Below, piece by piece: positions 6,041-38,444 of a stretch of 64,000 bases of DNA. Where the stretch lies: the NCBI GenBank assembly GCA_900617105.1, contig UYFQ01000268.1:1-64000 (forward strand). The letters are read 5' to 3'. A program made the position numbers and the translations under genes. This stretch comes from Hydrurus foetidus. Its lineage: Eukaryota. How positions within the stretch are numbered: the stretch's first letter is position 1; every line of letters starts with the position of its first letter. The notes below the pieces were generated by a model, which was not told where the DNA came from, searched no databases, and saw only the letters and a program-made list of their open reading frames with translations.

Positions 6041-6172
6041 CGTGTAGATTGAACATAACCCTGTAAACATCACAGCTACAGTGAGCTCTCACGACTCATG
6101 CAAGCATACAACGAACGAGTCCTCGTAGCAAAAGTCAAAACCTCACGCCACGTCGACAGCTTTAGTTCTGGC

Positions 6173-7731: not shown

Positions 7732-7752
7732 TTTAAATATAGATTTTTCTCA

Positions 7753-7827
7753 GGGGGTAACCTCATTTTTTTCTATATCAACTTCTGTTGGGTCCGTAGG
7801 AATTTATCAATGGTTTCCGGGTGCCCC
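7753..7827 (+). other. Conserved 75-nt structured non-coding element downstream of gene A (copy A)
   Basis: GC-rich island that aligns with the reverse complement of 45112-45186, while its flanks are diverged AT-rich DNA. Its ends are complementary (GGGGYA...TGCCCC). Confidence 0.7.
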
Positions 7828-7951
7828 GTTACTGAATGGAAGTAAAAAAAATACAAATATATTTTTTAACTGAAACTTTGGATTCTTTTTAAGATTTTGA
7901 ATGTAACTTCATAAAAATTCTCAGCAAAACTCTTTTGAATACAAAATCCAA

Positions 7952-10900: not shown

Positions 10901-11064
10901 CTCCATGTGCAACAGTTATTAGCGGACTATGTAAAGTACCATTCAAATAAGCATTATTTCTTTCAGGAATTACGGACACCCTTATTCTGCTTTTCTTATC
11001 ACGATCTCGTCTAATAATAGGCTCGAAAATACAGCCATCATTAACCCAGGGAAAACCGAATCGG
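7952..11064 (-). pseudogene. RepHel (Rep C-terminus plus PIF1-family SF1B helicase), 5'-truncated
   Basis: Motifs CRFGFPW (partial), EYVASYASKAE, TGEGGTGKS, LDEISM, FGGVHMLFTGDFYQL, THKMQGST and YVANSR. Introns 10606-10513 and 8559-8443 sit at the same positions as in copy B. In-frame TAA at 10665-10667 and 8732-8734. Confidence 0.92.
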
Positions 11065-11407
11065 TTAAGAATCTTGAGGGATCAACCAATGAGGTTTGAG
11101 TTCGAACGTGTTATCTTTTGAAGATTTTTTAGCCTAATTTTTTGCCCTTTTCTAAGGAAATTTTATGTTTTTTTAGTCAGTAAGAATCTGACATAATTAC
11201 GTTTTCTACCCTCGTACAACAGAATGAATCTGTTTTGTACAACCCCACCTTATCTTTCTACATCGAACCCCAAGTCTCGGCTAATTTTTCTTTTGTAATA
11301 CTTTTTATGTTCACTTTTATTTTTCATATTTTCGATTTTGCAAATATTTCGATATTTTCTTTTTCGATTAAATTATATATTAAGCTTTGCAAAGAAATGG
11401 GGGCTCC

Positions 11408-11449
11408 GATTTCGATTTCGATTTCGATTTCGATTTCGATTTCGATTTA
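11408..11449 (+). repeat. (GATTTC)n microsatellite, one per array unit (first shown), n about 2-16
   Basis: Read directly from the sequence. Longest near 31473-31567, shortest near 37024. It generates the spurious IS/RF/DF dipeptide ORFs. Confidence 0.95.
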
Positions 11450-11473
11450 GTTTAGATTTAGCTGAAATTTTCT

Positions 11474-11495
11474 TAGAAAGAAAGATTAGTGGGGG
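11474..11495 (+). other. Polypurine tract of LTR retrotransposon (one per unit, first shown)
   Basis: agaaagaaagattagtggggg, then a 3-nt spacer (taa), then the TG start of the LTR. Confidence 0.8.
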
Positions 11496-11706
11496 TAATG
11501 TGATAGTACCGGGTCCAGGGTCCCGATCCTACCGAGTACCGACTCTACCGGATCCTACCGGGTACTACTACTGTACACTATAGTTAGGCTGTTGTATCGT
11601 CGAGGCCATCTGCAGCGTCCACGTAGAAGTTAACTAGCTTCTAGCCTAGCCGACCAGTAACTAAGCCTACCTTTCTCGACTCTCCCTTTCTCCATTTCCG
11701 TGACTA

Positions 11707-11890
11707 TAATACAAAGAAACCGACATCGATGTCGTTCCATGTTAAATGGCTCAACTATGATAACTCACATAATACATGGGAGCCTTGGAAGAATCTCCGG
11801 CTCTGTGAAGCACTCCATGTATACTTGCGGAATAATAACATGTCACGTTTTATTCCCAAGAATCTTGAGGGATCAACCAATGAGGTTTGA
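11707..11890 (+). pseudogene. Chromodomain fragment (integrase C-terminus of a chromovirus), one per unit; internal ATG at 11729 gives a 53-aa ORF
   Basis: Translates as NTKKPTSMSFHVKWLNYDNSHNTWEPWKNLRLCEALHVYLRNNNMSRFIPKNLEGSTNEV*. This matches the F.VKW..Y....TWEP..NL chromodomain signature. The ORF is below the ORF-track cutoff. Confidence 0.9.
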
Positions 11891-14800
11891 GTTCGAACGT
11901 GTTATCTTTTGAAGATTTTTAGCCTAATTTTTTGCCCTTTTCTAAGGAAATTTTATGTTTTTTTAGTCAGTAAGAATCTGACATAATTACGTTTTCTACC
12001 CTCGTACAACAGAATGAATCTGTTTTGTACAACCCCACCTTATCTTTCTACATCGAACCCCAAGTCTCGGCTAATTTTTCTTTTGTAATACTTTTTATGT
12101 TCACTTTTATTTTTCATATTTTCGATTTTGCAAATATTTCGATATTTTCTTTTTCGATTAAATTATATATTAAGCTTTGCAAAGAAATGGGGGCTCCGAT
12201 TTCGATTTCGATTTCGATTTCGATTTCGATTTAGTTTAGATTTAGCTGAAATTTTCTTAGAAAGAAAGATTAGTGGGGGTAATGTGATAGTACCGGGTCC
12301 AGGGTCCCGATCCTACCGAGTACCGACTCTACCGGATCCTACCGGGTACTACTACTGTACACTATAGTTAGGCTGTTGTATCGTCGAGGCCATCTGCAGC
12401 GTCCACGTAGAAGTTAACTAGCTTCTAGCCTAGCCGACCAGTAACTAAGCCTACCTTTCTCGACTCTCCCTTTCTCCATTTCCGTGACTATAATACAAAG
12501 AAACCGACATCGATGTCGTTCCATGTTAAATGGCTCAACTATGATAACTCACATAATACATGGGAGCCTTGGAAGAATCTCCGGCTCTGTGAAGCACTCC
12601 ATGTATACTTGCGGAATAATAACATGTCACGTTTTATTCCCAAGAATCTTGAGGGATCAACCAATGAGGTTTGAGTTCGAACGTGTTATCTTTTGAAGAT
12701 TTTTTAGCCTAATTTTTTGCCCTTTTCTAAGGAAATTTTATGTTTTTTTAGTCAGTAAGAATCTGACATAATTACGTTTTCTACCCTCGTACAACAGAAT
12801 GAATCTGTTTTGTACAACCCCACCTTATCTTTCTACATCGAACCCCAAGTCTCGGCTAATTTTTCTTTTGTAATACTTTTTATGTTCACTTTTATTTTTC
12901 ATATTTTCGATTTTGCAAATATTTCGATATTTTCTTTTTCGATTAAATTATATATTAAGCTTTGCAAAGAAATGGGGGCTCCGATTTCGATTTCGATTTC
13001 GATTTCGATTTCGATTTCGATTTCGATTTCGATTTCGATTTCGATTTCGATTTAGTTTAGATTTAGCTGAAATTTTCTTAGAAAGAAAGATTAGTGGGGG
13101 TAATGTGATAGTACCGGGTCCAGGGTCCCGATCCTACCGAGTACCGACTCTACCGGATCCTACCGGGTACTACTACTGTACACTATAGTTAGGCTGTTGT
13201 ATCGTCGAGGCCATCTGCAGCGTCCACGTAGAAGTTAACTAGCTTCTAGCCTAGCCGACCAGTAACTAAGCCTACCTTTCTCGACTCTCCCTTTCTCCAT
13301 TTCCGTGACTATAATACAAAGAAACCGACATCGATGTCGTTCCATGTTAAATGGCTCAACTATGATAACTCACATAATACATGGGAGCCTTGGAAGAATC
13401 TCCGGCTCTGTGAAGCACTCCATGTATACTTGCGGAATAATAACATGTCACGTTTTATTCCCAAGAATCTTGAGGGATCAACCAATGAGGTTTGAGTTCG
13501 AACGTGTTATCTTTTGAAGATTTTTCAGCCTAATTTTTTGCCCTTTTCTAAGGAAATTTTATGTTTTTTTAGTCAGTAAGAATCTGACATAATTACGTTT
13601 TCTACCCTCGTACAACAGAATGAATCTGTTTTGTACAACCCCACCTTATCTTTCTACATCGAACCCCAAGTCTCGGCTAATTTTTCTTTTGTAATACTTT
13701 TTATGTTCACTTTTATTTTTCATATTTTCGATTTTGCAAATATTTCGATATTTTCTTTTTCGATTAAATTATATATTAAGCTTTGCAAAGAAATGGGGGC
13801 TCCGATTTCGATTTCGATTTCGATTTCGATTTAGTTTAGATTTAGCTGAAATTTTCTTAGAAAGAAAGATTAGTGGGGGTAATGTGATAGTACCGGGTCC
13901 AGGGTCCCGATCCTACCAGGTACCGACTCTACCGGATCCTACCGGGTACTACTACTGTACACTATAGTTAGGCTGTTGTATCGTCGAGGCCATCTGCAGC
14001 GTCCACGTAGAAGTTAACTAGCTTCTAGCCTAGCCGACCAGTAACTAAGCCTACCTTTCTCGACTCTCCCTTTCTCCATTTCCGTGACTATAATACAAAG
14101 AAACCGACATCGATGTCGTTCCATGTTAAATGGCTCAACTATGATAACTCACATAATACATGGGAGCCTTGGAAGAATCTCCGGCTCTGTGAAGCACTCC
14201 ATGTATACTTGCGGAATAATAACATGTCACGTTTTATTCCCAAGAATCTTGAGGGATCAACCAATGAGGTTTGAGTTCGAACGTGTTATCTTTTGAAGAT
14301 TTTTTAGCCTAATTTTTTGCCCTTTTCTAAGGAAATTTTATGTTTTTTTAGTCAGTAAGAATCTGACATAATTACGTTTTCTACCCTCGTACAACAGAAT
14401 GAATCTGTTTTGTACAACCCCACCTTATCTTTCTACATCGAACCCCAAGTCTCGGCTAATTTTTCTTTTGTAATACTTTTTATGTTCACTTTTATTTTTC
14501 ATATTTTCGATTTTGCAAATATTTCGATATTTTCTTTTTCGATTAAATTATATATTAAGCTTTGCAAAGAAATGGGGGCTCCGATTTCGATTTCGATCTC
14601 GATTTCGATTTCGATTTCGATTTCGATTTAGTTTAGATTTAGTTTAGATTTAGCTGAAATTTTCTTAGAAAGAAAGATTAGTGGGGGTAATGTGATAGTA
14701 CCGGGTCCAGGGTCCCGATCCTACCAGGTACCGACTCTACCGGATCCTACCGGGTACTACTACTGTACACTATAGTTAGGCTGTTGTATCGTCGAGGCCA

Positions 14801-17800
14801 TCTGCAGCGTTCACGTAGAAGTTAACTAGCTTCTAGCCTAGCCGACCAGTAACTAAGCCTACCTTTCTCGACTCTCCCTTTCTCCATTTCCGTGACTATA
14901 ATACAAAGAAACCGACATCGATGTCGTTCCATGTTAAATGGCTCAACTATGATAACTCACATAATACATGGGAGCCTTGGAAGAATCTCCGGCTCTGTGA
15001 AGCACTCCATGTATACTTGCGGAATAATAACATGTCACGTTTTATTCCCAAGAATCTTGAGGGATCAACCAATGAGGTTTGAGTTCGAACGTGTTATCTT
15101 TTGAAGATTTTTCAGCCTAATTTTTTGCCCTTTTCTAAGGAAATTTTATGTTTTTTTAGTCAGTAAGAATCTGACATAATTACGTTTTCTACCCTCGTAC
15201 AACAGAATGAATCTGTTTTGTACAACCCCACCTTATCTTTCTACATCGAACCCCAAGTCTCGGCTAATTTTTCTTTTGTAATACTTTTTATGTTCACTTT
15301 TATTTTTCATATTTTCGATTTTGCAAATATTTCGATATTTTCTTTTTCGATTAAATTATATATTAAGCTTTGCAAAGAAATGGGGGCTCCGATTTCGATT
15401 TCGATTTCGATTTCGATTTCGATTTCGATTTCGATTTCGATTTAGTTTAGATTTAGCTGAAATTTTCTTAGAAAGAAAGATTAGTGGGGGTAATGTGATA
15501 GTACCGGGTCCAGGGTCCCGATCCTACCGAGTACCGACTCTACCGGATCCTACCGGGTACTACTACTGTACACTATAGTTAGGCTGTTGTATCGTCGAGG
15601 CCATCTGCAGCGTCCACGTAGAAGTTAACTAGCTTCTAGCCTAGCCGACCAGTAACTAAGCCTACCTTTCTCGACTCTCCCTTTCTCCATTTCCGTGACT
15701 ATAATACAAAGAAACCGACATCGATGTCGTTCCATGTTAAATGGCTCAACTATGATAACTCACATAATACATGGGAGCCTTGGAAGAATCTCCGGCTCTG
15801 TGAAGCACTCCATGTATACTTGCGGAATAATAACATGTCACGTTTTATTCCCAAGAATCTTGAGGGATCAACCAATGAGGTTTGAGTTCGAACGTGTTAT
15901 CTTTTGAAGATTTTTAGCCTAATTTTTTGCCCTTTTCTAAGGAAATTTTATGTTTTTTTAGTCAGTAAGAATCTGACATAATTACGTTTTCTACCCTCGT
16001 ACAACAGAATGAATCTGTTTTGTACAACCCCACCTTATCTTTCTACATCGAACCCCAAGTCTCGGCTAATTTTTCTTTTGTAATACTTTTTATGTTCACT
16101 TTTATTTTTCATATTTTCGATTTTGCAAATATTTCGATATTTTCTTTTTCGATTAAATTATATATTAAGCTTTGCAAAGAAATGGGGGCTCCGATTTCGA
16201 TTTCGATTTCGATTTCGATTTCGATTTCGATTTCGATTTCGATTTCGATTTAGTTTAGATTTAGCTGAAATTTTCTTAGAAAGAAAGATTAGTGGGGGTA
16301 ATGTGATAGTACCGGGTCCAGGGTCCCGATCCTACCAGGTACCGACTCTACCGGATCCTACCGGGTACTACTACTGTACACTATAGTTAGGCTGTTGTAT
16401 CGTCGAGGCCATCTGCAGCGTCCACGTAGAAGTTAACTAGCTTCTAGCCTAGCCGACCAGTAACTAAGCCTACCTTTCTCGACTCTCCCTTTCTCCATTT
16501 CCGTGACTATAATACAAAGAAACCGACATCGATGTCGTTCCATGTTAAATGGCTCAACTATGATAACTCACATAATACATGGGAGCCTTGGAAGAATCTC
16601 CGGCTCTGTGAAGCACTCCATGTATACTTGCGGAATAATAACATGTCACGTTTTATTCCCAAGAATCTTGAGGGATCAACCAATGAGGTTTGAGTTCGAA
16701 CGTGTTATCTTTTGAAGATTTTTTAGCCTAATTTTTTGCCCTTTTCTAAGGAAATTTTATGTTTTTTTAGTCAGTAAGAATCTGACATAATTACGTTTTC
16801 TACCCTCGTACAACAGAATGAATCTGTTTTGTACAACCCCACCTTATCTTTCTACATCGAACCCCAAGTCTCGGCTAATTTTTCTTTTGTAATACTTTTT
16901 ATGTTCACTTTTATTTTTCATATTTTCGATTTTGCAAATATTTCGATATTTTCTTTTTCGATTAAATTATATATTAAGCTTTGCAAAGAAATGGGGGCTC
17001 CGATTTCGATTTCGATTTCGATTTCGATCTCGATTTAGTTTAGATTTAGTTTAGATTTAGCTGAAATTTTCTTAGAAAGAAAGATTAGTGGGGGTAATGT
17101 GATAGTACCGGGTCCAGGGTCCCGATCCTACCGAGTACCGACTCTACCGGATCCTACCGGGTACTACTACTGTACACTATAGTTAGGCTGTTGTATCGTC
17201 GAGGCCATCTGCAGCGTTCACGTAGAAGTTAACTAGCTTCTAGCCTAGCCGACCAGTAACTAAGCCTACCTTTCTCGACTCTCCCTTTCTCCATTTCCGT
17301 GACTATAATACAAAGAAACCGACATCGATGTCGTTCCATGTTAAATGGCTCAACTATGATAACTCACATAATACATGGGAGCCTTGGAAGAATCTCCGGC
17401 TCTGTGAAGCACTCCATGTATACTTGCGGAATAATAACATGTCACGTTTTATTCCCAAGAATCTTGAGGGATCAACCAATGAGGTTTGAGTTCGAACGTG
17501 TTATCTTTTGAAGATTTTTTAGCCTAATTTTTTGCCCTTTTCTAAGGAAATTTTATGTTTTTTTAGTCAGTAAGAATCTGACATAATTACGTTTTCTACC
17601 CTCGTACAACAGAATGAATCTGTTTTGTACAACCCCACCTTATCTTTCTACATCGAACCCCAAGTCTCGGCTAATTTTTCTTTTGTAATACTTTTTATGT
17701 TCACTTTTATTTTTCATATTTTCGATTTTGCAAATATTTCGATATTTTCTTTTTCGATTAAATTATATATTAAGCTTTGCAAAGAAATGGGGCTCCGATT

Positions 17801-20800
17801 TCGATTTCGATTTCGATTTCGATTTCGATTTCGATTTCGATTTAGTTTAGATTTAGCTGAAATTTTCTTAGAAAGAAAGATTAGTGGGGGTAATGTGATA
17901 GTACCGGGTCCAGGGTCCCGATCCTACCGAGTACCGACTCTACCGGATCCTACCGGGTACTACTACTGTACACTATAGTTAGGCTGTTGTATCGTCGAGG
18001 CCATCTGCAGCGTCCACGTAGAAGTTAACTAGCTTCTAGCCTAGCCGACCAGTAACTAAGCCTACCTTTCTCGACTCTCCCTTTCTCCATTTCCGTGACT
18101 ATAATACAAAGAAACCGACATCGATGTCGTTCCATGTTAAATGGCTCAACTATGATAACTCACATAATACATGGGAGCCTTGGAAGAATCTCCGGCTCTG
18201 TGAAGCACTCCATGTATACTTGCGGAATAATAACATGTCACGTTTTATTCCCAAGAATCTTGAGGGATCAACCAATGAGGTTTGAGTTCGAACGTGTTAT
18301 CTTTTGAAGATTTTTTAGCCTAATTTTTTGCCCTTTTCTAAGGAAATTTTATGTTTTTTTAGTCAGTAAGAATCTGACATAATTACGTTTTCTACCCTCG
18401 TACAACAGAATGAATCTGTTTTGTACAACCCCACCTTATCTTTCTACATCGAACCCCAAGTCTCGGCTAATTTTTCTTTTGTAATACTTTTTATGTTCAC
18501 TTTTATTTTTCATATTTTCGATTTTGCAAATATTTCGATATTTTCTTTTTCGATTAAATTATATATTAAGCTTTGCAAAGAAATGGGGGCTCCGATTTCG
18601 ATTTCGATTTCGATTTCGATTTCGATTTCGATTTCGATTTCGATTTCGATTTCGATTTCGATTTAGTTTAGATTTAGCTGAAATTTTCTTAGAAAGAAAG
18701 ATTAGTGGGGGTAATGTGATAGTACCGGGTCCAGGGTCCCGATCCTACCAGGTACCGACTCTACCGGATCCTACCGGGTACTACTACTGTACACTATAGT
18801 TAGGCTGTTGTATCGTCGAGGCCATCTGCAGCGTCCACGTAGAAGTTAACTAGCTTCTAGCCTAGCCGACCAGTAACTAAGCCTACCTTTCTCGACTCTC
18901 CCTTTCTCCATTTCCGTGACTATAATACAAAGAAACCGACATCGATGTCGTTCCATGTTAAATGGCTCAACTATGATAACTCACATAATACATGGGAGCC
19001 TTGGAAGAATCTCCGGCTCTGTGAAGCACTCCATGTATACTTGCGGAATAATAACATGTCACGTTTTATTCCCAAGAATCTTGAGGGATCAACCAATGAG
19101 GTTTGAGTTCGAACGTGTTATCTTTTGAAGATTTTTTAGCCTAATTTTTTGCCCTTTTCTAAGGAAATTTTATGTTTTTTTAGTCAGTAAGAATCTGACA
19201 TAATTACGTTTTCTACCCTCGTACAACAGAATGAATCTGTTTTGTACAACCCCACCTTATCTTTCTACATCGAACCCCAAGTCTCGGCTAATTTTTCTTT
19301 TGTAATACTTTTTATGTTCACTTTTATTTTTCATATTTTCGATTTTGCAAATATTTCGATATTTTCTTTTTCGATTAAATTATATATTAAGCTTTGCAAA
19401 GAAATGGGGGCTCCGATTTCGATTTCGATTTCGATTTCGATTTCGATTTCGATTTCGATTTCGATTTCGATTTAGTTTAGATTTAGCTGAAATTTTCTTA
19501 GAAAGAAAGATTAGTGGGGGTAATGTGATAGTACCGGGTCCAGGGTCCCGATCCTACCAGGTACCGACTCTACCGGATCCTACCGGGTACTACTACTGTA
19601 CACTATAGTTAGGCTGTTGTATCGTCGAGGCCATCTGCAGCGTTCACGTAGAAGTTAACTAGCTTCTAGCCTAGCCGACCAGTAACTAAGCCTACCTTTC
19701 TCGACTCTCCCTTTCTCCATTTCCGTGACTATAATACAAAGAAACCGACATCGATGTCGTTCCATGTTAAATGGCTCAACTATGATAACTCACATAATAC
19801 ATGGGAGCCTTGGAAGAATCTCCGGCTCTGTGAAGCACTCCATGTATACTTGCGGAATAATAACATGTCACGTTTTATTCCCAAGAATCTTGAGGGATCA
19901 ACCAATGAGGTTTGAGTTCGAACGTGTTATCTTTTGAAGATTTTTAGCCTAATTTTTGCCCTTTTCTAAGGAAATTTTATGTTTTTTTAGTCAGTAAGAA
20001 TCTGACATAATTACGTTTTCTACCCTCGTACAACAGAATGAATCTGTTTTGTACAACCCCACCTTATCTTTCTACATCGAACCCCAAGTCTCGGCTAATT
20101 TTTCTTTTGTAATACTTTTTATGTTCACTTTTATTTTTCATATTTTCGATTTTGCAAATATTTCGATATTTTCTTTTTCGATTAAATTATATATTAAGCT
20201 TTGCAAAGAAATGGGGGCTCCGATTTCGATTTCGATTTCGATTTCGATTTCGATTTCGATTTCGATTTCGATTTCGATTTCGATTTAGTTTAGATTTAGC
20301 TGAAATTTTCTTAGAAAGAAAGATTAGTGGGGGTAATGTGATAGTACCGGGTCCAGGGTCCCGATCCTACCAGGTACCGACTCTACCGGATCCTACCGGG
20401 TACTACTACTGTACACTATAGTTAGGCTGTTGTATCGTCGAGGCCATCTGCAGCGTCCACGTAGAAGTTAACTAGCTTCTAGCCTAGCCGACCAGTAACT
20501 AAGCCTACCTTTCTCGACTCTCCCTTTCTCCATTTCCGTGACTATAATACAAAGAAACCGACATCGATGTCGTTCCATGTTAAATGGCTCAACTATGATA
20601 ACTCACATAATACATGGGAGCCTTGGAAGAATCTCCGGCTCTGTGAAGCACTCCATGTATACTTGCGGAATAATAACATGTCACGTTTTATTCCCAAGAA
20701 TCTTGAGGGATCAACCAATGAGGTTTGAGTTCGAACGTGTTATCTTTTGAAGATTTTTTAGCCTAATTTTTTGCCCTTTTCTAAGGAAATTTTATGTTTT

Positions 20801-23800
20801 TTTAGTCAGTAAGAATCTGACATAATTACGTTTTCTACCCTCGTACAACAGAATGAATCTGTTTTGTACAACCCCACCTTATCTTTCTACATCGAACCCC
20901 AAGTCTCGGCTAATTTTTCTTTTGTAATACTTTTTATGTTCACTTTTATTTTTCATATTTTCGATTTTGCAAATATTTCGATATTTTCTTTTTCGATTAA
21001 ATTATATATTAAGCTTTGCAAAGAAATGGGGGCTCCGATTTCGATTTCGATTTCGATTTCGATTTCGATTTCGATTTCGATTTCGATTTCGATTTCGATT
21101 TAGTTTAGATTTAGCTGAAATTTTCTTAGAAAGAAAGATTAGTGGGGGTAATGTGATAGTACCGGGTCCAGGGTCCCGATCCTACCGAGTACCGACTCTA
21201 CCGGATCCTACCGGGTACTACTACTGTACACTATAGTTAGGCTGTTGTATCGTCGAGGCCATCTGCAGCGTTCACGTAGAAGTTAACTAGCTTCTAGCCT
21301 AGCCGACCAGTAACTAAGCCTACCTTTCTCGACTCTCCCTTTCTCCATTTCCGTGACTATAATACAAAGAAACCGACATCGATGTCGTTCCATGTTAAAT
21401 GGCTCAACTATGATAACTCACATAATACATGGGAGCCTTGGAAGAATCTCCGGCTCTGTGAAGCACTCCATGTATACTTGCGGAATAATAACATGTCACG
21501 TTTTATTCCCAAGAATCTTGAGGGATCAACCAATGAGGTTTGAGTTCGAACGTGTTATCTTTTGAAGATTTTTTAGCCTAATTTTTTGCCCTTTTCTAAG
21601 GAAATTTTATGTTTTTTTAGTCAGTAAGAATCTGACATAATTACGTTTTCTACCCTCGTACAACAGAATGAATCTGTTTTGTACAACCCCACCTTATCTT
21701 TCTACATCGAACCCCAAGTCTCGGCTAATTTTTCTTTTGTAATACTTTTTATGTTCACTTTTATTTTTCATATTTTCGATTTTGCAAATATTTCGATATT
21801 TTCTTTTTCGATTAAATTATATATTAAGCTTTGCAAAGAAATGGGGGCTCCGATTTCGATTTCGATTTCGATTTCGATTTCGATTTCGATTTCGATTTCG
21901 ATTTCGATTTAGTTTAGATTTAGCTGAAATTTTCTTAGAAAGAAAGATTAGTGGGGGTAATGTGATAGTACCGGGTCCAGGGTCCCGATCCTACCAGGTA
22001 CCGACTCTACCGGATCCTACCGGGTACTACTACTGTACACTATAGTTAGGCTGTTGTATCGTCGAGGCCATCTGCAGCGTCCACGTAGAAGTTAACTAGC
22101 TTCTAGCCTAGCCGACCAGTAACTAAGCCTACCTTTCTCGACTCTCCCTTTCTCCATTTCCGTGACTATAATACAAAGAAACCGACATCGATGTCGTTCC
22201 ATGTTAAATGGCTCAACTATGATAACTCACATAATACATGGGAGCCTTGGAAGAATCTCCGGCTCTGTGAAGCACTCCATGTATACTTGCGGAATAATAA
22301 CATGTCACGTTTTATTCCCAAGAATCTTGAGGGATCAACCAATGAGGTTTGAGTTCGAACGTGTTATCTTTTGAAGATTTTTCAGCCTAATTTTTTGCCC
22401 TTTTCTAAGGAAATTTTATGTTTTTTTAGTCAGTAAGAATCTGACATAATTACGTTTTCTACCCTCGTACAACAGAATGAATCTGTTTTGTACAACCCCA
22501 CCTTATCTTTCTACATCGAACCCCAAGTCTCGGCTAATTTTTCTTTTGTAATACTTTTTATGTTCACTTTTATTTTTCATATTTTCGATTTTGCAAATAT
22601 TTCGATATTTTCTTTTTCGATTAAATTATATATTAAGCTTTGCAAAGAAATGGGGGCTCCGATTTCGATTTCGATTTCGATTTCGATTTCGATTTAGTTT
22701 AGATTTAGCTGAAATTTTCTTAGAAAGAAAGATTAGTGGGGGTAATGTGATAGTACCGGGTCCAGGGTCCCGATCCTACCAGGTACCGACTCTACCGGAT
22801 CCTACCGGGTACTACTACTGTACACTATAGTTAGGCTGTTGTATCGTCGAGGCCATCTGCAGCGTTCACGTAGAAGTTAACTAGCTTCTAGCCTAGCCGA
22901 CCAGTAACTAAGCCTACCTTTCTCGACTCTCCCTTTCTCCATTTCCGTGACTATAATACAAAGAAACCGACATCGATGTCGTTCCATGTTAAATGGCTCA
23001 ACTATGATAACTCACATAATACATGGGAGCCTTGGAAGAATCTCCGGCTCTGTGAAGCACTCCATGTATACTTGCGGAATAATAACATGTCACGTTTTAT
23101 TCCCAAGAATCTTGAGGGATCAACCAATGAGGTTTGAGTTCGAACGTGTTATCTTTTGAAGATTTTTAGCCTAATTTTTTGCCCTTTTCTAAGGAAATTT
23201 TATGTTTTTTTAGTCAGTAAGAATCTGACATAATTACGTTTTCTACCCTCGTACAACAGAATGAATCTGTTTTGTACAACCCCACCTTATCTTTCTACAT
23301 CGAACCCCAAGTCTCGGCTAATTTTTCTTTTGTAATACTTTTTATGTTCACTTTTATTTTTCATATTTTCGATTTTGCAAATATTTCGATATTTTCTTTT
23401 TCGATTAAATTATATATTAAGCTTTGCAAAGAAATGGGGGCTCCGATTTCGATTTCGATTTCGATTTCGATTTCGATTTCGATTTCGATTTAGATTTAGC
23501 TGAAATTTTCTTAGAAAGAAAGATTAGTGGGGGTAATGTGATAGTACCGGGTCCAGGGTCCCGATCCTACCAGGTACCGACTCTACCGGATCCTACCGGG
23601 TACTACTACTGTACACTATAGTTAGGCTGTTGTATCGTCGAGGCCATCTGCAGCGTTCACGTAGAAGTTAACTAGCTTCTAGCCTAGCCGACCAGTAACT
23701 AAGCCTACCTTTCTCGACTCTCCCTTTCTCCATTTCCGTGACTATAATACAAAGAAACCGACATCGATGTCGTTCCATGTTAAATGGCTCAACTATGATA

Positions 23801-26800: not shown

Positions 26801-29800
26801 GGATCCTACCGGGTACTACTACTGTACACTATAGTTAGGCTGTTGTATCGTCGAGGCCATCTGCAGCGTTCACGTAGAAGTTAACTAGCTTCTAGCCTAG
26901 CCGACCAGTAACTAAGCCTACCTTTCTCGACTCTCCCTTTCTCCATTTCCGTGACTATAATACAAAGAAACCGACATCGATGTCGTTCCATGTTAAATGG
27001 CTCAACTATGATAACTCACATAATACATGGGAGCCTTGGAAGAATCTCCGGCTCTGTGAAGCACTCCATGTATACTTGCGGAATAATAACATGTCACGTT
27101 TTATTCCCAAGAATCTTGAGGGATCAACCAATGAGGTTTGAGTTCGAACGTGTTATCTTTTGAAGATTTTTAGCCTAATTTTTTGCCCTTTTCTAAGGAA
27201 ATTTTATGTTTTTTTAGTCAGTAAGAATCTGACATAATTACGTTTTCTACCCTCGTACAACAGAATGAATCTGTTTTGTACAACCCCACCTTATCTTTCT
27301 ACATCGAACCCCAAGTCTCGGCTAATTTTTCTTTTGTAATACTTTTTATGTTCACTTTTATTTTTCATATTTTCGATTTTGCAAATATTTCGATATTTTC
27401 TTTTTCGATTAAATTATATATTAAGCTTTGCAAAGAAATGGGGGCTCCGATTTCGATTTCGATTTCGATTTCGATTTCGATTTCGATTTCGATTTCGATT
27501 TAGATTTAAGATTTTCTTAGAAAGAAAGATTAGTGGGGGTAATGTGATAGTACCGGGTCCAGGGTCCCGATCCTACCAGGTACCGACTCTACCGGATCCT
27601 ACCGGGTACTACTACTGTACACTATAGTTAGGCTGTTGTATCGTCGAGGCCATCTGCAGCGTTCACGTAGAAGTTAACTAGCTTCTAGCCTAGCCGACCA
27701 GTAACTAAGCCTACCTTTCTCGACTCTCCCTTTCTCCATTTCCGTGACTATAATACAAAGAAACCGACATCGATGTCGTTCCATGTTAAATGGCTCAACT
27801 ATGATAACTCACATAATACATGGGAGCCTTGGAAGAATCTCCGGCTCTGTGAAGCACTCCATGTATACTTGCGGAATAATAACATGTCACGTTTTATTCC
27901 CAAGAATCTTGAGGGATCAACCAATGAGGTTTGAGTTCGAACGTGTTATCTTTTGAAGATTTTTTAGCCTAATTTTTTGCCCTTTTCTAAGGAAATTTTA
28001 TGTTTTTTTAGTCAGTAAGAATCTGACATAATTACGTTTTCTACCCTCGTACAACAGAATGAATCTGTTTTGTACAACCCCACCTTATCTTTCTACATCG
28101 AACCCCAAGTCTCGGCTAATTTTTCTTTTGTAATACTTTTTATGTTCACTTTTATTTTTCATATTTTCGATTTTGCAAATATTTCGATATTTTCTTTTTC
28201 GATTAAATTATATATTAAGCTTTGCAAAGAAATGGGGGCTCCGATTTCGATTTCGATTTCGATTTCGATTTCGATTTCGATTTCGATTTCGATTTCGATT
28301 TCGATTTAGTTTAGATTTAGCTGAAATTTTCTTAGAAAGAAAGATTAGTGGGGGTAATGTGATAGTACCGGGTCCAGGGTCCCGATCCTACCAGGTACCG
28401 ACTCTACCGGATCCTACCGGGTACTACTACTGTACACTATAGTTAGGCTGTTGTATCGTCGAGGCCATCTGCAGCGTTCACGTAGAAGTTAACTAGCTTC
28501 TAGCCTAGCCGACCAGTAACTAAGCCTACCTTTCTCGACTCTCCCTTTCTCCATTTCCGTGACTATAATACAAAGAAACCGACATCGATGTCGTTCCATG
28601 TTAAATGGCTCAACTATGATAACTCACATAATACATGGGAGCCTTGGAAGAATCTCCGGCTCTGTGAAGCACTCCATGTATACTTGCGGAATAATAACAT
28701 GTCACGTTTTATTCCCAAGAATCTTGAGGGATCAACCAATGAGGTTTGAGTTCGAACGTGTTATCTTTTGAAGATTTTTAGCCTAATTTTTTGCCCTTTT
28801 CTAAGGAAATTTTATGTTTTTTTAGTCAGTAAGAATCTGACATAATTACGTTTTCTACCCTCGTACAACAGAATGAATCTGTTTTGTACAACCCCACCTT
28901 ATCTTTCTACATCGAACCCCAAGTCTCGGCTAATTTTTCTTTTGTAATACTTTTTATGTTCACTTTTATTTTTCATATTTTCGATTTTGCAAATATTTCG
29001 ATATTTTCTTTTTCGATTAAATTATATATTAAGCTTTGCAAAGAAACGGGGGCCCGATTTCGATTCGATGATTTCGATTTCGATTTCGAGATTTCGATTT
29101 CGCGATTAGAATTTTTTAGATTTAGCTGAAATTTTCTTAGAAAGAAAGATTAGTGGGGGTAATGTGATAGTACCGGGTCCAGGGTCCCGATCCTACCAGG
29201 TACCGACTCTACCGGATCCTACCGGGTACTACTACTGTACACTATAGTTAGGCTGTTGTATCGTCGAGGCCATCTGCAGCGTTCACGTAGAAGTTAACTA
29301 GCTTCTAGCCTAGCCGACCAGTAACTAAGCCTACCTTTCTCGACTCTCCCTTTCTCCATTTCCGTGACTATAATACAAAGAAACCGACATCGATGTCGTT
29401 CCATGTTAAATGGCTCAACTATGATAACTCACATAATACATGGGAGCCTTGGAAGAATCTCCGGCTCTGTGAAGCACTCCATGTATACTTGCGGAATAAT
29501 AACATGTCACGTTTTATTCCCAAGAATCTTGAGGGATCAACCAATGAGGTTTGAGTTCGAACGTGTTATCTTTTGAAGATTTTTTAGCCTAATTTTTTGC
29601 CCTTTTCTAAGGAAATTTTATGTTTTTTTAGTCAGTAAGAATCTGACATAATTACGTTTTCTACCCTCGTACAACAGAATGAATCTGTTTTGTACAACCC
29701 CACCTTATCTTTCTACATCGAACCCCAAGTCTCGGCTAATTTTTCTTTTGTAATACTTTTTATGTTCACTTTTATTTTTCATATTTTCGATTTTGCAAAT

Positions 29801-32800
29801 ATTTCGATATTTTCTTTTTCGATTAAATTATATATTAAGCTTTGCAAAGAAACGGGGGCTCCGATTTCGATTTCGATTTCGATTTCGATTTCGATTTCGA
29901 TTTCGATTTCGATTTAGTTTAGATTTAGCTGAAATTTTCTTAGAAAGAAAGATTAGTGGGGGTAATGTGATAGTACCGGGTCCAGGGTCCCGATCCTACC
30001 GGTACCGACTCTACCGGATCCTACCGGGTACTACTACTGTACACTATAGTTAGGCTGTTGTATCGTCGAGGCCATCTGCAGCGTTCACGTAGAAGTTAAC
30101 TAGCTTCTAGCCTAGCCGACCAGTAACTAAGCCTACCTTTCTCGACTCTCCCTTTCTCCATTTCCGTGACTATAATACAAAGAAACCGACATCGATGTCG
30201 TTCCATGTTAAATGGCTCAACTATGATAACTCACATAATACATGGGAGCCTTGGAAGAATCTCCGGCTCTGTGAAGCACTCCATGTATACTTGCGGAATA
30301 ATAACATGTCACGTTTTATTCCCAAGAATCTTGAGGGATCAACCAATGAGGTTTGAGTTCGAACGTGTTATCTTTTGAAGATTTTTAGCCTAATTTTTGC
30401 CCTTTTCTAAGGAAATTTTATGTTTTTTAGTCAGTAAGAATCTGACATAATTACGTTTTCTACCCTCGTACAACAGAATGAATCTGTTTTGTACAACCCC
30501 ACCTTATCTTTCTACATCGAACCCCAAGTCTCGGCTAATTTTTCTTTTGTAATACTTTTTATGTTCACTTTTATTTTTCATATTTTCGATTTTGCAAATA
30601 TTTCGATATTTTCTTTTTCGATTAAATTATATATTAAGCTTTGCAAAGAAACGGGGCTCCGATTTCGATTTCGATTTCGATTTCGATTTCGATTTCGATT
30701 TCGATTTCGATTTCGATTTCGATTTAGTTTAGATTTAGCTTTTTTTCTTAGAAAGAAAGATTAGTGGGGTAATGTGATAGTACCGGGTCCAGGGTCCCGA
30801 TCCTACCAGGTACCGACTCTACCGGATCCTACCGGGTACTACTACTGTACACTATAGTTAGGCTGTTGTATCGTCGAGGCCATCTGCAGCGTTCACGTAG
30901 AAGTTAACTAGCTTCTAGCCTAGCCGACCAGTAACTAAGCCTACCTTTCTCGACTCTCCCTTTCTCCATTTCCGTGACTATAATACAAAGAAACCGACAT
31001 CGATGTCGTTCCATGTTAAATGGCTCAACTATGATAACTCACATAATACATGGGAGCCTTGGAAGAATCTCCGGCTCTGTGAAGCACTCCATGTATACTT
31101 GCGGAATAATAACATGTCACGTTTTATTCCCAAGAATCTTGAGGGATCAACCAATGAGGTTTGAGTTCGAACGTGTTATCTTTTGAAGATTTTTTAGCCT
31201 AATTTTTTGCCCTTTTCTAAGGAAATTTTATGTTTTTTTAGTCAGTAAGAATCTGACATAATTACGTTTTCTACCCTCGTACAACAGAATGAATCTGTTT
31301 TGTACAACCCCACCTTATCTTTCTACATCGAACCCCAAGTCTCGGCTAATTTTTCTTTTGTAATACTTTTTATGTTCACTTTTATTTTTCATATTTTCGA
31401 TTTTGCAAATATTTCGATATTTTCTTTTTCGATTAAATTATATATTAAGCTTTGCAAAGAAATGGGGGCTCCGATTTCGATTTCGATTTCGATTTCGATT
31501 TCGATTTCGATTTCGATTTCGATTTCGATTTCGATTTCGATTTCGATTTCGATTTCGATTTCGATTTAGTTTAGATTTAGCTGAAATTTTCTTAGAAAGA
31601 AAGATTAGTGGGGGTAATGTGATAGTACCGGGTCCAGGGTCCCGATCCTACCAGGTACCGACTCTACCGGATCCTACCGGGTACTACTACTGTACACTAT
31701 AGTTAGGCTGTTGTATCGTCGAGGCCATCTGCAGCGTTCACGTAGAAGTTAACTAGCTTCTAGCCTAGCCGACCAGTAACTAAGCCTACCTTTCTCGACT
31801 CTCCCTTTCTCCATTTCCGTGACTATAATACAAAGAAACCGACATCGATGTCGTTCCATGTTAAATGGCTCAACTATGATAACTCACATAATACATGGGA
31901 GCCTTGGAAGAATCTCCGGCTCTGTGAAGCACTCCATGTATACTTGCGGAATAATAACATGTCACGTTTTATTCCCAAGAATCTTGAGGGATCAACCAAT
32001 GAGGTTTGAGTTCGAACGTGTTATCTTTTGAAGATTTTTTAGCCTAATTTTTTGCCCTTTTCTAAGGAAATTTTATGTTTTTTTAGTCAGTAAGAATCTG
32101 ACATAATTACGTTTTCTACCCTCGTACAACAGAATGAATCTGTTTTGTACAACCCCACCTTATCTTTCTACATCGAACCCCAAGTCTCGGCTAATTTTTC
32201 TTTTGTAATACTTTTTATGTTCACTTTTATTTTTCATATTTTCGATTTTGCAAATATTTCGATATTTTCTTTTTCGATTAAATTATATATTAAGCTTTGC
32301 AAAGAAACGGGGGCTCCGATTTCGATTTCGATTTCGATTTAGATTTAGCTGAAATTTTCTTAGAAAGAAAGATTAGTGGGGGTAATGTGATAGTACCGGG
32401 TCCAGGGTCCCGATCCTACCAGGTACCGACTCTACCGGATCCTACCGGGTACTACTACTGTACACTATAGTTAGGCTGTTGTATCGTCGAGGCCATCTGC
32501 AGCGTTCACGTAGAAGTTAACTAGCTTCTAGCCTAGCCGACCAGTAACTAAGCCTACCTTTCTCGACTCTCCCTTTCTCCATTTCCGTGACTATAATACA
32601 AAGAAACCGACATCGATGTCGTTCCATGTTAAATGGCTCAACTATGATAACTCACATAATACATGGAAGCCTTGGAAGAATCTCCGGCTCTGTGAAGCAC
32701 TCCATGTATACTTGCGGAATAATAACATGTCACGTTTTATTCCCAAGAATCTTGAGGGATCAACCAATGAGGTTTGAGTTCGAACGTGTTATCTTTTGAA

Positions 32801-35800
32801 GATTTTTTAGCCTAATTTTTTGCCCTTTTCTAAGGAAATTTTATGTTTTTTTAGTCAGTAAGAATCTGACATAATTACGTTTTCTACCCTCGTACAACAG
32901 AATGAATCTGTTTTGTACAACCCCACCTTATCTTTCTACATCGAACCCCAAGTCTCGGCTAATTTTTCTTTTGTAATACTTTTTATGTTCACTTTTATTT
33001 TTTCATATTTTCGATTTTGCAAATATTTCGATATTTTCTTTTTCGATTAAATTATATATTAAGCTTTGCAAAGAAATGGGGGCTCCGATTTCGATTTCGA
33101 TTTAGATTTCGATTCGATCGATTTCTGATTTAGTTTAGATTTAGCTGAAATTTTCAGAAAGAAAGATTAGTGGGGTAATGTGATAGTACCGGGTCCAGGG
33201 TCCCGATCCTACCAGTACCGACTCTACCGGATCCTACCGGGTACTACTACTGTACACTATAGTTAGGCTGTTGTATCGTCGAGGCCATCTGCAGCGTTCA
33301 CGTAGAAGTTAACTAGCTTCTAGCCTAGCCGACCAGTAACTAAGCCTACCTTTCTCGACTCTCCCTTTCTCCATTTCCGTGACTATAATACAAAGAAACC
33401 GACATCGATGTCGTTCCATGTTAAATGGCTCAACTATGATAACTCACATAATACATGGGAGCCTTGGAAGAATCTCCGGCTCTGTGAAGCACTCCATGTA
33501 TACTTGCGGAATAATAACATGTCACGTTTTATTCCCAAGAATCTTGAGGGATCAACCAATGAGGTTTGAGTTCGAACGTGTTATCTTTTGAAGATTTTTT
33601 AGCCTAATTTTTTGCCCTTTTCTAAGGAAATTTTATGTTTTTTTAGTCAGTAAGAATCTGACATAATTACGTTTTCTACCCTCGTACAACAGAATGAATC
33701 TGTTTTGTACAACCCCACCTTATCTTTCTACATCGAACCCCAAGTCTCGGCTAATTTTTCTTTTGTAATACTTTTATGTTCACTTTTTTTTCATATTTTC
33801 GATTTTGCAAATATTTCGATATTTTCTTTTCGATTAAATTATATATTAAGCTTTGCAAAGAAACGGGGGCTCCGATTTCGATTTCGATTTCGATTTCGAT
33901 TTCGATTTCGATTTCGATTTCGATTCTCGATTTAGTTTAGATTTAGCTGAAATTTTCTTAGAAAGAAAGATTAGTGGGGGTAATGTGATAGTACCGGGTC
34001 CAGGGTCCCGATCCTACCGGTACCGACTCTACCGGATCCTACCGGGTACTACTACTGTACACTATAGTTAGGCTGTTGTATCGTCGAGGCCATCTGCAGC
34101 GTTCACGTAGAAGTTAACTAGCTTCTAGCCTAGCCGACCAGTAACTAAGCCTACCTTTCTCGACTCTCCCTTTCTCCATTTCCGTGACTATAATACAAAG
34201 AAACCGACATCGATGTCGTTCCATGTTAAATGGCTCAACTATGATAACTCACATAATACATGGAAGCCTTGGAAGAATCTCCGGCTCTGTGAAGCACTCC
34301 ATGTATACTTGCGGAATAATAACATGTCACGTTTTATTCCCAAGAATCTTGAGGGATCAACCAATGAGGTTTGAGTTCGAACGTGTTATCTTTTGAAGAT
34401 TTTTTAGCCTAATTTTTTGCCCTTTTCTAAGGAAATTTTATGTTTTTTTAGTCAGTAAGAATCTGACATAATTACGTTTTCTACCCTCGTACAACAGAAT
34501 GAATCTGTTTTGTACAACCCCACCTTATCTTTCTACATCGAACCCCAAGTCTCGGCTAATTTTTCTTTTGTAATACTTTTTATGTTCACTTTTATTTTTC
34601 ATATTTTCGATTTTGCAAATATTTCGATATTTTCTTTTTCGATTAAATTATATATTAAGCTTTGCAAAGAAATGGGGGCTCCGATTTCGATTTCGATTTC
34701 GATCTCGATTTCGATTTCGATTTCGATCTCGATTTAGTTTAGATTTAGTTTAGATTTAGCTGAAATTTTCTTAGAAAGAAAGATTAGTGGGGGTAATGTG
34801 ATAGTACCGGGTCCAGGGTCCCGATCCTACCAGGTACCGACTCTACCGGATCCTACCGGGTACTACTACTGTACACTATAGTTAGGCTGTTGTATCGTCG
34901 AGGCCATCTGCAGCGTCCACGTAGAAGTTAACTAGCTTCTAGCCTAGCCGACCAGTAACTAAGCCTACCTTCTCGACTCTCCCTTTCTCCATTTCCGTGA
35001 CTATAATACAAAGAAACCGACATCGATGTCGTTCCATGTTAAATGGCTCAACTATGATAACTCACATAATACATGGGAGCCTTGGAAGAATCTCCGGCTC
35101 TGTGAAGCACTCCATGTATACTTCGGAATAATAACATGTCACGTTTTATTCCCAAGAATCTTGAGGGATCAACCAATGAGGTTTGAGTTCGAACGTGTTA
35201 TCTTTTGAAGATTTTTTAGCCTAATTTTTTGCCCTTTTCTAAGGAAATTTTATGTTTTTTTAGTCAGTAAGAATCTGACATAATTACGTTTTCTACCCTC
35301 GTACAACAGAATGAATCTGTTTTGTACAACCCCACCTTATCTTTCTACATCGAACCCCAAGTCTCGGCTAATTTTTCTTTTGTAATACTTTTTATGTTCA
35401 CTTTTATTTTTCATATTTTCGATTTTGCAAATATTTCGATATTTTCTTTTTCGATTAAATTATATATTAAGCTTTGCAAAGAAATGGGGGCTCCGATTTC
35501 GATCTCGATTTCGATTTAGCTGAAATTTTCTTAGAAAGAAAGATTAGTGGGGGTAATGTGATAGTACCGGGTCCAGGGTCCCGATCCTACCAGGTACCGA
35601 CTCTACCGGATCCTACCGGGTACTACTACTGTACACTATAGTTAGGCTGTTGTATCGTCGAGGCCATCTGCAGCGTTCACGTAGAAGTTAACTAGCTTCT
35701 AGCCTAGCCGACCAGTAACTAAGCCTACCTTTCTCGACTCTCCCTTTCTCCATTTCCGTGACTATAATACAAAGAAACCGACATCGATGTCGTTCCATGT

Positions 35801-37805
35801 TAAATGGCTCAACTATGATAACTCACATAATACATGGAAGCCTTGGAAGAATCTCCGGCTCTGTGAAGCACTCCATGTATACTTGCGGAATAATAACATG
35901 TCACGTTTTATTCCCAAGAATCTTGAGGGATCAACCAATGAGGTTTGAGTTCGAACGTGTTATCTTTTGAAGATTTTTTAGCCTAATTTTTTGCCCTTTT
36001 CTAAGGAAATTTTATGTTTTTTTAGTCAGTAAGAATCTGACATAATTACGTTTTCTACCCTCGTACAACAGAATGAATCTGTTTTGTACAACCCCACCTT
36101 ATCTTTCTACATCGAACCCCAAGTCTCGGCTAATTTTTCTTTTGTAATACTTTTTATGTTCACTTTTATTTTTCATATTTTCGATTTTGCAAATATTTCG
36201 ATATTTTCTTTTTCGATTAAATTATATATTAAGCTTTGCAAAGAAATGGGGGCTCCGATTTCGATTCTGATTTAGTTTAGATTTAGCTGAAATTTTCTTA
36301 GAAAGAAAGATTAGTGGGGGTAATGTGATAGTACCGGGTCCAGGGTCCCGATCCTACCAGGTACCGACTCTACCGGATCCTACCGGGTACTACTACTGTA
36401 CACTATAGTTAGGCTGTTGTATCGTCGAGGCCATCTGCAGCGTTCACGTAGAAGTTAACTAGCGTCAAGCCTAGCCGACCAGTAACTAAGCCTACCTTTC
36501 TCGACTCTCCCTTTCTCCATTTCCGTGACTATAATACAAAGAAACCGACATCGATGTCGTTCCATGTTAAATGGCTCAACTATGATAACTCACATAATAC
36601 ATGGAAGCCTTGGAAGAATCTCCGGCTCTGTGAAGCACTCCATGTATACTTGCGGAATAATAACATGTCACGTTTTATTCCCAAGAATCTTGAGGGATCA
36701 ACCAATGAGGTTTGAGTTCGAACGTGTTATCTTTTGAAGATTTTTTAGCCTAATTTTTTGCCCTTTTCTAAGGAAATTTTATGTTTTTTCAGTCAGTAAG
36801 AATCTGACATAATTACGTTTTCTACCCTCGTACAACAGAATGAATCTGTTTTGTACAACCCCACCTTATCTTTCTACATCGAACCCCAAGTCTCGGCTAA
36901 TTTTTCTTTTGTAATACTTTTTATGTTCACTTTTATTTTTCATATTTTCGATTTTGCAAATATTTCGATATTTTCTTTTTCGATTAAATTATATATTAAG
37001 CTTTGCAAAGAAATGGGGGCTCCGATTTCGATTTAGTTTAGATTTAGCTGAAATTTTCTTAGAAAGAAAGATTAGTGGGGGTAATGTGATAGTACCGGGT
37101 CCAGGGTCCCGATCCTACCAGGTACCGACTCTACCGGATCCTACCGGGTACTACTACTGTACACTATAGTTAGGCTGTTGTATCGTCGAGGCCATCTGCA
37201 GCGTTCACGTAGAAGTTAACTAGCTTCTAGCCTAGCCGACCAGTAACTAAGCCTACCTTTCTCGACTCTCCCTTTCTCCATTTCCGTGACTATAATACAA
37301 AGAAACCGACATCGATGTCGTTCCATGTTAAATGGCTCAACTATGATAACTCACATAATACATGGAGCTTTTTCCGGAACTCGGCTCTGTAGTTACCCAT
37401 GTATAATGGATACAATGTTATTCCCAAGAATCTTGAGATCAACCAATGAGGTTTGAGTTCGAACGTGTTATCTTTTGAAGATTTTAGCCTAATTTTGTTC
37501 CTTTCTAAGAATTTATAGTTTTTAAGAATTCGACATAATTATTGAAATCATTCTTGTACAACAGAATGAATCTGTTTTGTACAACCCCACCTTATCTTTC
37601 TACATCGAACCCCAAGTCTCTATTTTTCTTGATATTTTTATGTTCACTTTATTTTCATATTTTCGATTTTGCAAATATTTCGATATTTTCTTTTTCGATT
37701 AAATTATATATTAAGCTTTGCAAAGAAACGGGGGCTCCGATTTCGATTCTGATTTAGTTTAGATTTAGCTGAAATTTTCTTAGAAAGAAAGATTAGTGGG
37801 GGTAA

Positions 37806-38015
37806 TGTGATAGTACCGGGTCCAGGGTCCCGATCCTACCAGGTACCGACTCTACCGGATCCTACCGGGTACTACTACTGTACACTATAGTTAGGCTGTT
37901 GTATCGTCGAGGCCATCTGCAGCGTTCACGTAGAAGTTAACTAGCTTCTAGCCTAGCCGACCAGTAACTAAGCCTACCTTTCTCGACTCTCCCTTTCTCC
38001 ATTTCCGTGACTACA
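37806..38015 (+). mobile_element. Complete 210-bp LTR (last array unit)
   Basis: Begins TGT right after the PPT and ends ...gtgactACA. All internal units read gtgacta|taataca, i.e. they lack the terminal CA. Confidence 0.75.
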
Positions 38016-38444
38016 CCGAATACATTTCAGAGGCCTATATAGGATATGCGGATTTACAATTGGGGGATAAACCTAATGGTGGTTCCACCTCTATATAACA
38101 AATGTCATTTTATATGACGCTAGATTTGCAGGGATTTGACCGTGTTCTCGCAGTCCGAGAATGGTTTTAGGGGGTCTAATTTTGGGGGGATTTGACGATC
38201 CGGGGGTCTAATGTTGATGCGATTATCCGGTGGGTTTTATGGAGCTGGACGTTTGGATGATCCGGGGGGGGGGGTCTCATGGAGTTTGGGTGAAACACAC
38301 GACGCAACCCTCTGTACTGTTATCTACTCTTGTGATGAGACGAACTGAAACTAGCTGAACTTCAGTGCTGATGTATTCATGATGGGCTAGTCATTAACTT
38401 CAGATCGAACCATTTACAGGCTCATAGTATTGACTTGCTTTTTT

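Follow-up and report, generated by a model that had tools for sequence, protein, structure and literature searches.

The 64,000-nucleotide stretch of Hydrurus foetidus DNA analysed here (GenBank assembly GCA_900617105.1, contig UYFQ01000268.1, positions 1 to 64,000 of the forward strand; hereafter the window) carries a satellite at 11067..38015 (+) that is built head to tail from the 3′ end of a chromodomain-bearing long terminal repeat (LTR) retrotransposon, with 34 LTRs and 33 identical LTR-to-chromodomain junctions. The unit and its multi-copy state are real outside this assembly and are not a one-off concatemer, and the joint between neighbouring units, as judged from its letters, is in register with the LTR end, 0–2 nt from the terminus. 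We give about an even chance to the reading that we favour, in which one copy inserted, in the same orientation, into the chromodomain stretch of a copy already resident there, after which unequal exchange expanded the array.

A preliminary description of this DNA, made from the letters alone, had claimed about 34 head-to-tail units, each consisting of a chromodomain-coding tail, a stop codon, a 3′ untranslated region (3′UTR), a polypurine tract (PPT) and an LTR. This was borne out when the array was counted with an LTR-start anchor, which gave 34 copies with starts from 11499 to 37806. The array totals 26,949 bp, or about 33.6 periods, opening on the left with a 432-bp partial unit from 11067 and closing on the right with a lone terminal LTR at 38015. 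The LTR starts define 33 full periods, the first 32 ranging from 760 to 845 bp (mean 800, standard deviation 19) and the 33rd being 721 bp and noisy. Nearly all of the variation in period length comes from a (CGATTT)n microsatellite in the 3′UTR, in which the number of core hexamers ranges from 1 to 15 among units. The parts of the array are as follows:

11067..38015 (+): tandem array, 34 LTRs and 33 junctions
11067..11498 (+): partial first unit, with the last chromodomain-tail codons, 3′UTR, microsatellite and PPT
11499..11708 (+): LTR of unit 1, 210 bp, with a TG start and TA as the final two bases, versus CA in the terminal LTR
11709..11890 (+): 5′-truncated chromodomain/integrase tail with stop codon; parent contigs agree from 11709 and diverge before it
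11891..12196 (+): T-rich 3′UTR of unit 1, covered by family contigs
12197..12243 (+): (CGATTT)n microsatellite of unit 1, the chief source of period variation
12259..12282 (+): PPT immediately 5′ of the next LTR
37085..37805 (+): last full unit, 721 bp, with many deletions and 87% identity
37806..38015 (+): terminal LTR, 210 bp, intact TG...CA, abutting host DNA

Independent evidence was taken from the short contigs of outside runs, 24 of them listed. Those in which this DNA occurs are metagenomes of freshwater, sediment, glacier and air, together with one coded organism; none is an RNA run, which has no bearing on expression. The right border was compared in four runs (X1, X3, X8 and X11). 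The junction was found in three of the four, X1, X8 and X11 (studies P1, P3 and P6, of 2023, 2025 and 2025), where contigs depart from the LTR at 38013 and then carry the unit junction for 34–36 letters; a 107-base contig of X8 crosses the unit junction with one difference. X8 and X11 could belong to a single campaign, and the source could be any one of the runs; X1 differs in year and habitat label. No junction row was among the matches listed for X3, which had 42 further rows. The unique right border was bridged at a depth of 5.06 in X1 (32 LTR letters) and 77.2 in X3 (30 LTR letters, one below the bar), while the exact LTR tail of the window reached 117 and 5,040, and the depth steps that our own subtraction attributes to the junction contig were about 130 and 6,100, respectively. 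The preliminary description had named read depth as a check on copy number, and this check supports a multi-copy state, the junction or LTR-tail depth being 23–27 times the right-border depth in X1 and 65–79 times in X3, rough ratios since contig depth is only a rough guide and not a copy number. Where no right border was seen, the junction depth was 14.4 (X8) and about 27 by subtraction (X11). In X1, the depth of the LTR variant is close to that of the junction plus a single right border, leaving little room for dispersed monomers as far as the rows listed show. Short contigs alone fit an array or circles alike; the variable units within the window argue for a chromosomal array over circles. 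With a long head-to-tail array of a transposable element (TE) subsequence in the window and a multi-copy junction in independent data, the locus has the features of a retrotransposon-derived satellite.

The position of the joint carries most of what can be said about origin. Outside contigs set the LTR end at 38015 (CA), where the depth drops and five X3 contigs continue into unlike sequence (agreement 0.52), and on this ground we rejected a longer LTR that would reach 5 nt deeper into the unit or extend into the right flank. The terminal LTR keeps its CA and a unique host border. The internal LTRs are also 210 bp long up to 11709, and their last two bases are TA at 33/33 junctions. Parent contigs match the unit from 11709, the base right after the LTR, in X1 (three contigs) and in X8 (two contigs). 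At the position of the cut, 27 of 30 relatives have Asp, two have Gly or Glu, one has no residue and none has Asn; the unit shows Asn, so its first codon is a junction product. A random break in the 800-bp unit would fall this near the LTR terminus in <1% of cases. A joint at the LTR end thus points to integrase, and its simplest reading is an integrase joint with a later CA-to-TA change. The LTR end and the parent target are alike over about 9 bases. Neither this register with the LTR terminus nor the Helitron identity of both flanks, described below, was part of the preliminary account.

Compared with unit 1, microsatellite included, the full units are 95–99.6% identical and the last one is 87% identical, the latter likely being unpolished long-read sequence. 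Divergence and Mantel comparisons covered 32 units, leaving out the noisy unit and the microsatellite. Divergence outside (CGATTT)n averaged 2.2 substitutions per ~700 bp (0.31%), a value that sets an upper limit for an array that is young or has been homogenised. The further apart two units lie in the array, the less similar they are (Mantel rho 0.34, p 0.0002), and the four shared variants tested sit shifted toward one array end (p 0.0004–0.03). The expansion therefore looks gradual rather than a one-step rolling circle, and the rolling-circle amplification proposed earlier, if taken as a single step, does not agree with neighbouring units being more alike than distant ones. The same proposal of a very young satellite caught at birth holds as far as youth is concerned; "at birth" is overstated, because the junction is shared by samples of three studies and the variants depend on position. 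At site 11535, the residual depth of the non-majority base was about 3,550 in X3, about 4,600 in X5, 15 in X1 and 0 in X8, which hints that this unit variant is real, and we do not rely on it. The observed/expected CpG ratio was 1.1 in the unit versus 0.76–0.94 in four flanking regions; the depletion is thus absent from the unit, and the ratio gives no pointer either way on methylation. An Rfam search of 11000–13200 gave no match at E 0.1.

The unit tail matches Pfam Chromo with an E value of 2.8e-9, above the curated cut-off, and ends at a stop codon (11888–11890). Its chromodomain is cut at the 5′ side, the first ~13 residues being absent from each unit. By eye, the parent has three aromatic residues at what we take to be the cage positions of the chromodomain, and the unit is without the first. 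Among longer proteins, 30 relatives were obtained from 31 candidates with identities of 72–95%, including polyproteins of 1823 and 1788 aa, so that the parental LTR element, the search for which had been suggested earlier, is represented by Ty3/gypsy polyproteins such as P0013, 85% identical to the unit tail. The domains of P0013 (residues) are:

986–1145: RVT_1
1243–1340: RT_RNaseH
1393–1449: Integrase_H2C2
1472–1557: rve
1758–1805: Chromo

The parent polyprotein thus has the order reverse transcriptase (RT), RNase H, integrase and chromodomain, and with a TG...CA LTR after a PPT the parent of the unit is classed by its sequence as a chromodomain-bearing Ty3/gypsy (Metaviridae) element. In tblastn searches with P0013, P0015, P0006, P0004 and P0023, each gave 34 window matches, in the array only and with the C-terminal tail only (residues 1757–1820 of 1823 in P0013). 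Because these five relatives match only via that tail, the gag, RT, RNase H and integrase core of the parent family are absent from the window, as had been claimed for gag, RT and integrase core. The earlier statement that there is no primer-binding site (PBS) likewise stands, since no TGG-type motif was found after the LTR, where chromodomain codons follow directly. Without a PBS-like motif and without the first cage residue of the chromodomain, the array probably has no function, as far as its sequence tells.

The description of the unit as the 3′ end of a chromovirus is right in that the parent has the classical chromodomain at the integrase C-terminus that is a chromovirus feature. The clade name itself can be given only tentatively: a reference RT look-up returned generic RT clusters only and no clade name, and stramenopiles possess independent chromodomain Ty3 lineages, Chronos and ECR (PMC11541908; the literature is cited here and below from titles, abstract beginnings and passages). 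The parent carries a classical Pfam Chromo and not the CR motif, which replaces the classical chromodomain in the CRM group of plant centromeric chromoviruses and defines it (PMC11541908; bioRxiv 10.64898/2025.12.07.692804).

The parent family is very abundant in the outside runs examined. Exact DNA patterns derived from the unit had no match in JGI metagenome contigs, GTDB genomes or IMG/VR, a P0013 search of IMG/VR gave no relative, and the 53-aa open reading frame (ORF) from the internal ATG of the unit was absent from the protein collection searched. A search for related loci yielded nine, all distant (49–59% identity for the six with long matches), and there was no tandem of this unit in the six related loci examined. 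In the distant relative L002, a similar G-run precedes the 3′ LTR. Another distant chromodomain Ty3 relative, L003, has two 98% identical terminal repeats (1–411 and 8306–8716), and its positions 10415–11872 hold a second stretch of its own internal sequence, 76–78% identical, possibly another tandem or nested arrangement.

Under the favoured reading of a nested self-insertion, the integrase would first have joined the 3′ LTR end of the new copy to position 11709 of the old copy, placing tail, UTR, PPT and LTR twice on the chromosome. The CA of this junction would then have become TA prior to expansion, so that all 33 junctions share TA, and the LTR of the old copy at 38015 would retain CA together with the host border. 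Going by the variant gradient, unequal exchange or gene conversion would next have multiplied the unit while the hexamer repeat slipped. Lastly, the sequence left of 11067, element body included, would have been lost through deletion or rearrangement into a Helitron, unless the contig was mis-joined there. A contig of X1 joins the LTR 5′ end to the chromodomain of the family on the opposite strand (11498/11762, depth 9.8), which suggests that the family does insert into its own chromodomain; this joint may be a second self-insertion or an inversion product. The borders on which the sequence of events bears are as follows:

1..11062 (-): left flank Helitron with PIF1 helicase, the C-terminal part of Rep and accessory ORFs, ending incomplete where the array begins
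11063..11066: a few filler bases where the Helitron, cut inside its Rep region, meets the array
38016..38057: host spacer of 42 bp separating the terminal LTR from the right Helitron; a low-depth contig crosses it in X1 and in X3
38058..53810, end approximate (+): right flank Helitron, ~15.7 kb and apparently complete, with OTU, DUF6570, Helitron_like_N and PIF1

The two flanking Helitrons are 75% identical over 4 kb and lie in opposite orientation. Both 38058–~53810 (+) and 1–11062 (-) are giant Helitrons that carry OTU, DUF6570, Rep and PIF1 along with five or more unnamed accessory ORFs, the order being mirrored between the two. An 11-bp inverted match pairs the 5′ end of the right Helitron (38061) with 53773–53783, which is followed by a hairpin-like stretch, as at Helitron2/Helentron ends; a 132-bp two-copy tandem lies inside this Helitron at 46493–46760. 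The right-border contig of X1 diverges from the window at 38060 (77/184 letters aligned), and that of X3 enters the Helitron without a difference. The right Helitron therefore looks polymorphic, and X1 likely lacks it yet has the multi-copy junction, in which case the array would predate the Helitron insertion. No target-site duplication was found around the array, and a 5-letter match near both borders was rejected as such a duplication because the left border is no LTR end. At the left border (11057–11066), the filler and the Helitron end together make up a short, perfect inverted repeat of the kind that fold-back synthesis produces, of three bases only. The left Helitron copy of the window differs by about 2% from the listed contigs of X1, X5 and X8. 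The left border could be a deletion private to this haplotype or a mis-join.

Several observations weigh against the nested self-insertion as told above. The 5′ side of such an insertion, with its target-site duplication, is absent from the window and from the matches listed, and an autointegration circle recombined into a resident copy yields the same array and the same right border. An integrase joint requires one additional C-to-T change, and identical letters would also arise from an LTR shorter by 2 nt, given either filler or a single G-to-A change on the parent side. The left border is unbridged among the 32 of 6,244 pieces shown, and the listed contigs of X1, X5 and X8 pass 11062 into other sequence. 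The opposite-strand joint is one contig with 31 letters on its short side and a likeness of 90, a level at which joints may come from other organisms or repeats. The units share variants at only 5 sites, all of them transitions or a base swap, and some of these might stem from errors in the long-read consensus.

The closest competitor is an autointegration circle, which we regard as a real but clearly less probable origin. Here, the 3′ LTR end of the complementary DNA (cDNA) attacks its own strand in the chromodomain and gives an ~800-bp one-LTR deletion circle, which then recombines into a resident copy, or rolls into a concatemer and inserts, with expansion following. Autointegration predicts exactly this unit and a joint at the LTR end; deletion circles of SISYPHUS in Arabidopsis hold the 5′ or 3′ LTR up to the integration site (PMC7197481), and the opposite-strand joint of X1 could also be an inversion product. 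However, the circle needs an extra rare step, its return to the chromosome, and nested insertion is rated above it because it takes one step fewer. A one-step rolling-circle concatemer should moreover lack the positional variant gradient and the 1–15 hexamers per unit, so that later exchange is required anyway, and the missing target-site duplication around the array also speaks against the insertion of a circle. The full version of this account, in which the array is an autointegration "suicide" circle returned to the genome, expanded to tens of copies and shared across wild golden-alga populations, with a copy number readable from public data (about 25 in X1, about 65–80 in X3 and 33 here), is held only tentatively, perhaps one chance among four. 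The earlier alternatives of a one-LTR circle or a duplication followed by unequal exchange survive in part: unequal exchange belongs to the favoured self-insertion, but one-LTR circles of the ordinary type contain the full element, and a break at the LTR end is not what a plain duplication would be expected to give.

Host repair without integrase, in which a break or a free cDNA end was joined to the chromodomain 0–2 nt inside the LTR end and so made the first duplication, is unlikely. It would account for a junction without the canonical CA and for the ~9-base likeness of the LTR end and the parent target; the left-border filler could be fold-back synthesis, a weak point at three bases, and illegitimate recombination was proposed for the maize arrays CRM1TR/CRM4TR (PMC3648361). 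Against it stand the chance of a random break within 2 nt of the LTR end, put above at below 1% over the 800-bp unit, and the product of a pure microhomology join, which would be 5 nt shorter than observed.

The surroundings bear on the next alternative. An intron-containing RRM (ELAV-like) host gene at 57101–58925 (+) lies 19 kb from the array and has 46 relatives, almost all environmental. Six clusters were looked up for taxon naming (four RRM relatives and two retrotransposon polyproteins) and one was named, the chrysophyte Dinobryon, the only taxon-named relative found of the RRM gene, at 35% identity over about 500 aligned residues. A reference look-up gave no host taxon. A chrysophyte or close ochrophyte is likely as the host, and not a plant, which does not fit the plant-centromere frame in which the array had first been placed. 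We consider it improbable that the array is a functional centromeric satellite or a mobile TRIM-like mini-element in tandem. Retrotransposon-derived arrays do bind CENH3 in Rosa (bioRxiv 10.64898/2026.09.17.752431), brown-algal centromeres are marked by chromodomain Ty3 elements (PMC11541908; bioRxiv 10.64898/2025.12.07.692804) and Cassandra TRIMs make long arrays (PMC7215508). However, the host gene is only 19 kb away, leaving the earlier suggestion of a centromeric location without support, and the passages on brown algae describe centromeres mostly without satellites and several chromodomain families that are not centrophilic (bioRxiv 10.64898/2025.12.07.692804). The unit also has no PBS-like TGG-type motif, a feature of TRIM/Cassandra elements, and the X1 depths leave little room for dispersed monomers. 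As a TE cluster, the array could plausibly lie in heterochromatin.

Still less credible is an artefact, either a whole-genome-amplification concatemer or an assembly loop, to which the one noisy unit and the unverified left border might point. The junction occurs in short-read contigs of X1, X8 and X11 from three studies, the LTR tail (117) and junction step (about 130) of X1 stand against 5.06 at the unique right border, and the units vary in microsatellite length and shared variants. For the unit and the multi-copy state, an artefact is largely refuted; assembly may still account for the left join and for the exact number of 34. Least probable of all is amplification by a flanking Helitron, with its Rep/helicase rolling out the adjacent retrotransposon tail, for although Helitrons abut both array ends (the right one 42 bp off), the unit has no above-chance similarity to either flank (outside the edge of the array itself the best matches are at E 0.2 or worse) and no Helitron sequence or end, and X1 likely has the multi-copy junction without the right Helitron.

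Three further features were observed beyond the right Helitron. A 2.6-kb element at 54110–56690 resembles a DNA transposon: it is bounded by inverted repeats of a doubled 17-mer and carries a 623-aa ORF (-) and a 169-aa ORF (+), both without a Pfam match. An ORF at 59897–60187 (-) begins with a signal peptide followed by Phe, presumably like the plastid-targeting signal of photosynthetic stramenopiles. A 26-bp four-copy tandem lies in host sequence at 61331–61443.

Among known systems, the maize arrays CRM1TR/CRM4TR are similar in being wholly Ty3/gypsy-derived, in combining LTR and adjacent internal DNA with an internal variable repeat and in being near-identical to their parent, and nested insertion was suggested as one of their origins (PMC3648361); in contrast, their monomers begin inside the LTR and take in a portion of it plus the UTR that follows, whereas the unit here takes the whole LTR and the 3′ end, is cut at the LTR terminus and comes from a likely chrysophyte host. 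The TE tandem dimers of Drosophila (McGurk and Barbash 2018) share a transposition-made dimer, expansion by unequal exchange and a common founding mark at every junction, and tail-to-internal junctions are described there for non-LTR elements (PMC5932611). The arrays in the passages are of whole elements (hobo, R1 and Bari1), with hobo and R1 arising via double insertion at one site, and here the unit is the tail of an LTR element, likely fixed by an insertion of the element into itself. Lee et al. 2020 treat autointegration circles of SISYPHUS and of Ty1, which likewise contain one LTR and internal DNA up to an integrase-made joint but are described as extrachromosomal dead ends and not as chromosomal arrays (PMC7197481). 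Cassandra/TRIM arrays and LTR-sharing tandems also alternate an LTR with a short PPT-bearing internal domain in long near-identical arrays; their units are whole elements with a PBS, while ours lacks a PBS-like motif and its coding tail is cut (PMC7215508, PMC11899658). Brown-algal ECR elements are stramenopile Ty3 elements with a classical chromodomain fused to integrase (PMC11541908; bioRxiv 10.64898/2025.12.07.692804), as here, but ECR centromeres are mostly without satellites, and the likeness to the parent is one of features. Sobo, St3-58/St18, PisTR-A and the Athila-derived Rosa arrays are also satellites from LTR-retrotransposon subsequences (PMC9659126; bioRxiv 10.64898/2026.09.17.752431); all are from plants, and among the rows listed the sources are the LTR, 3′UTR or gag, with no chromodomain-to-LTR unit (PMC9659126). 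In a literature search covering titles, abstract beginnings and passages, with subscription papers and supplements outside its scope, neither a chromodomain-to-LTR monomer nor such a chrysophyte satellite was found.

Retrotransposon-derived satellites are thus known as a class, and what is new is the preserved integrase-type joint, the original border and the population-level support. On present evidence the array says nothing on centromeres. It extends retrotransposon-derived satellites to a likely chrysophyte alga, and the depth of its junction is usable as a copy-number marker in environmental samples. The position of the joint at the LTR end leaves two integrase routes for the origin. Satellites seldom preserve traces of how their first tandem dimer formed; in this array, the founding joint and the untouched original border remain, and so do close parent copies.

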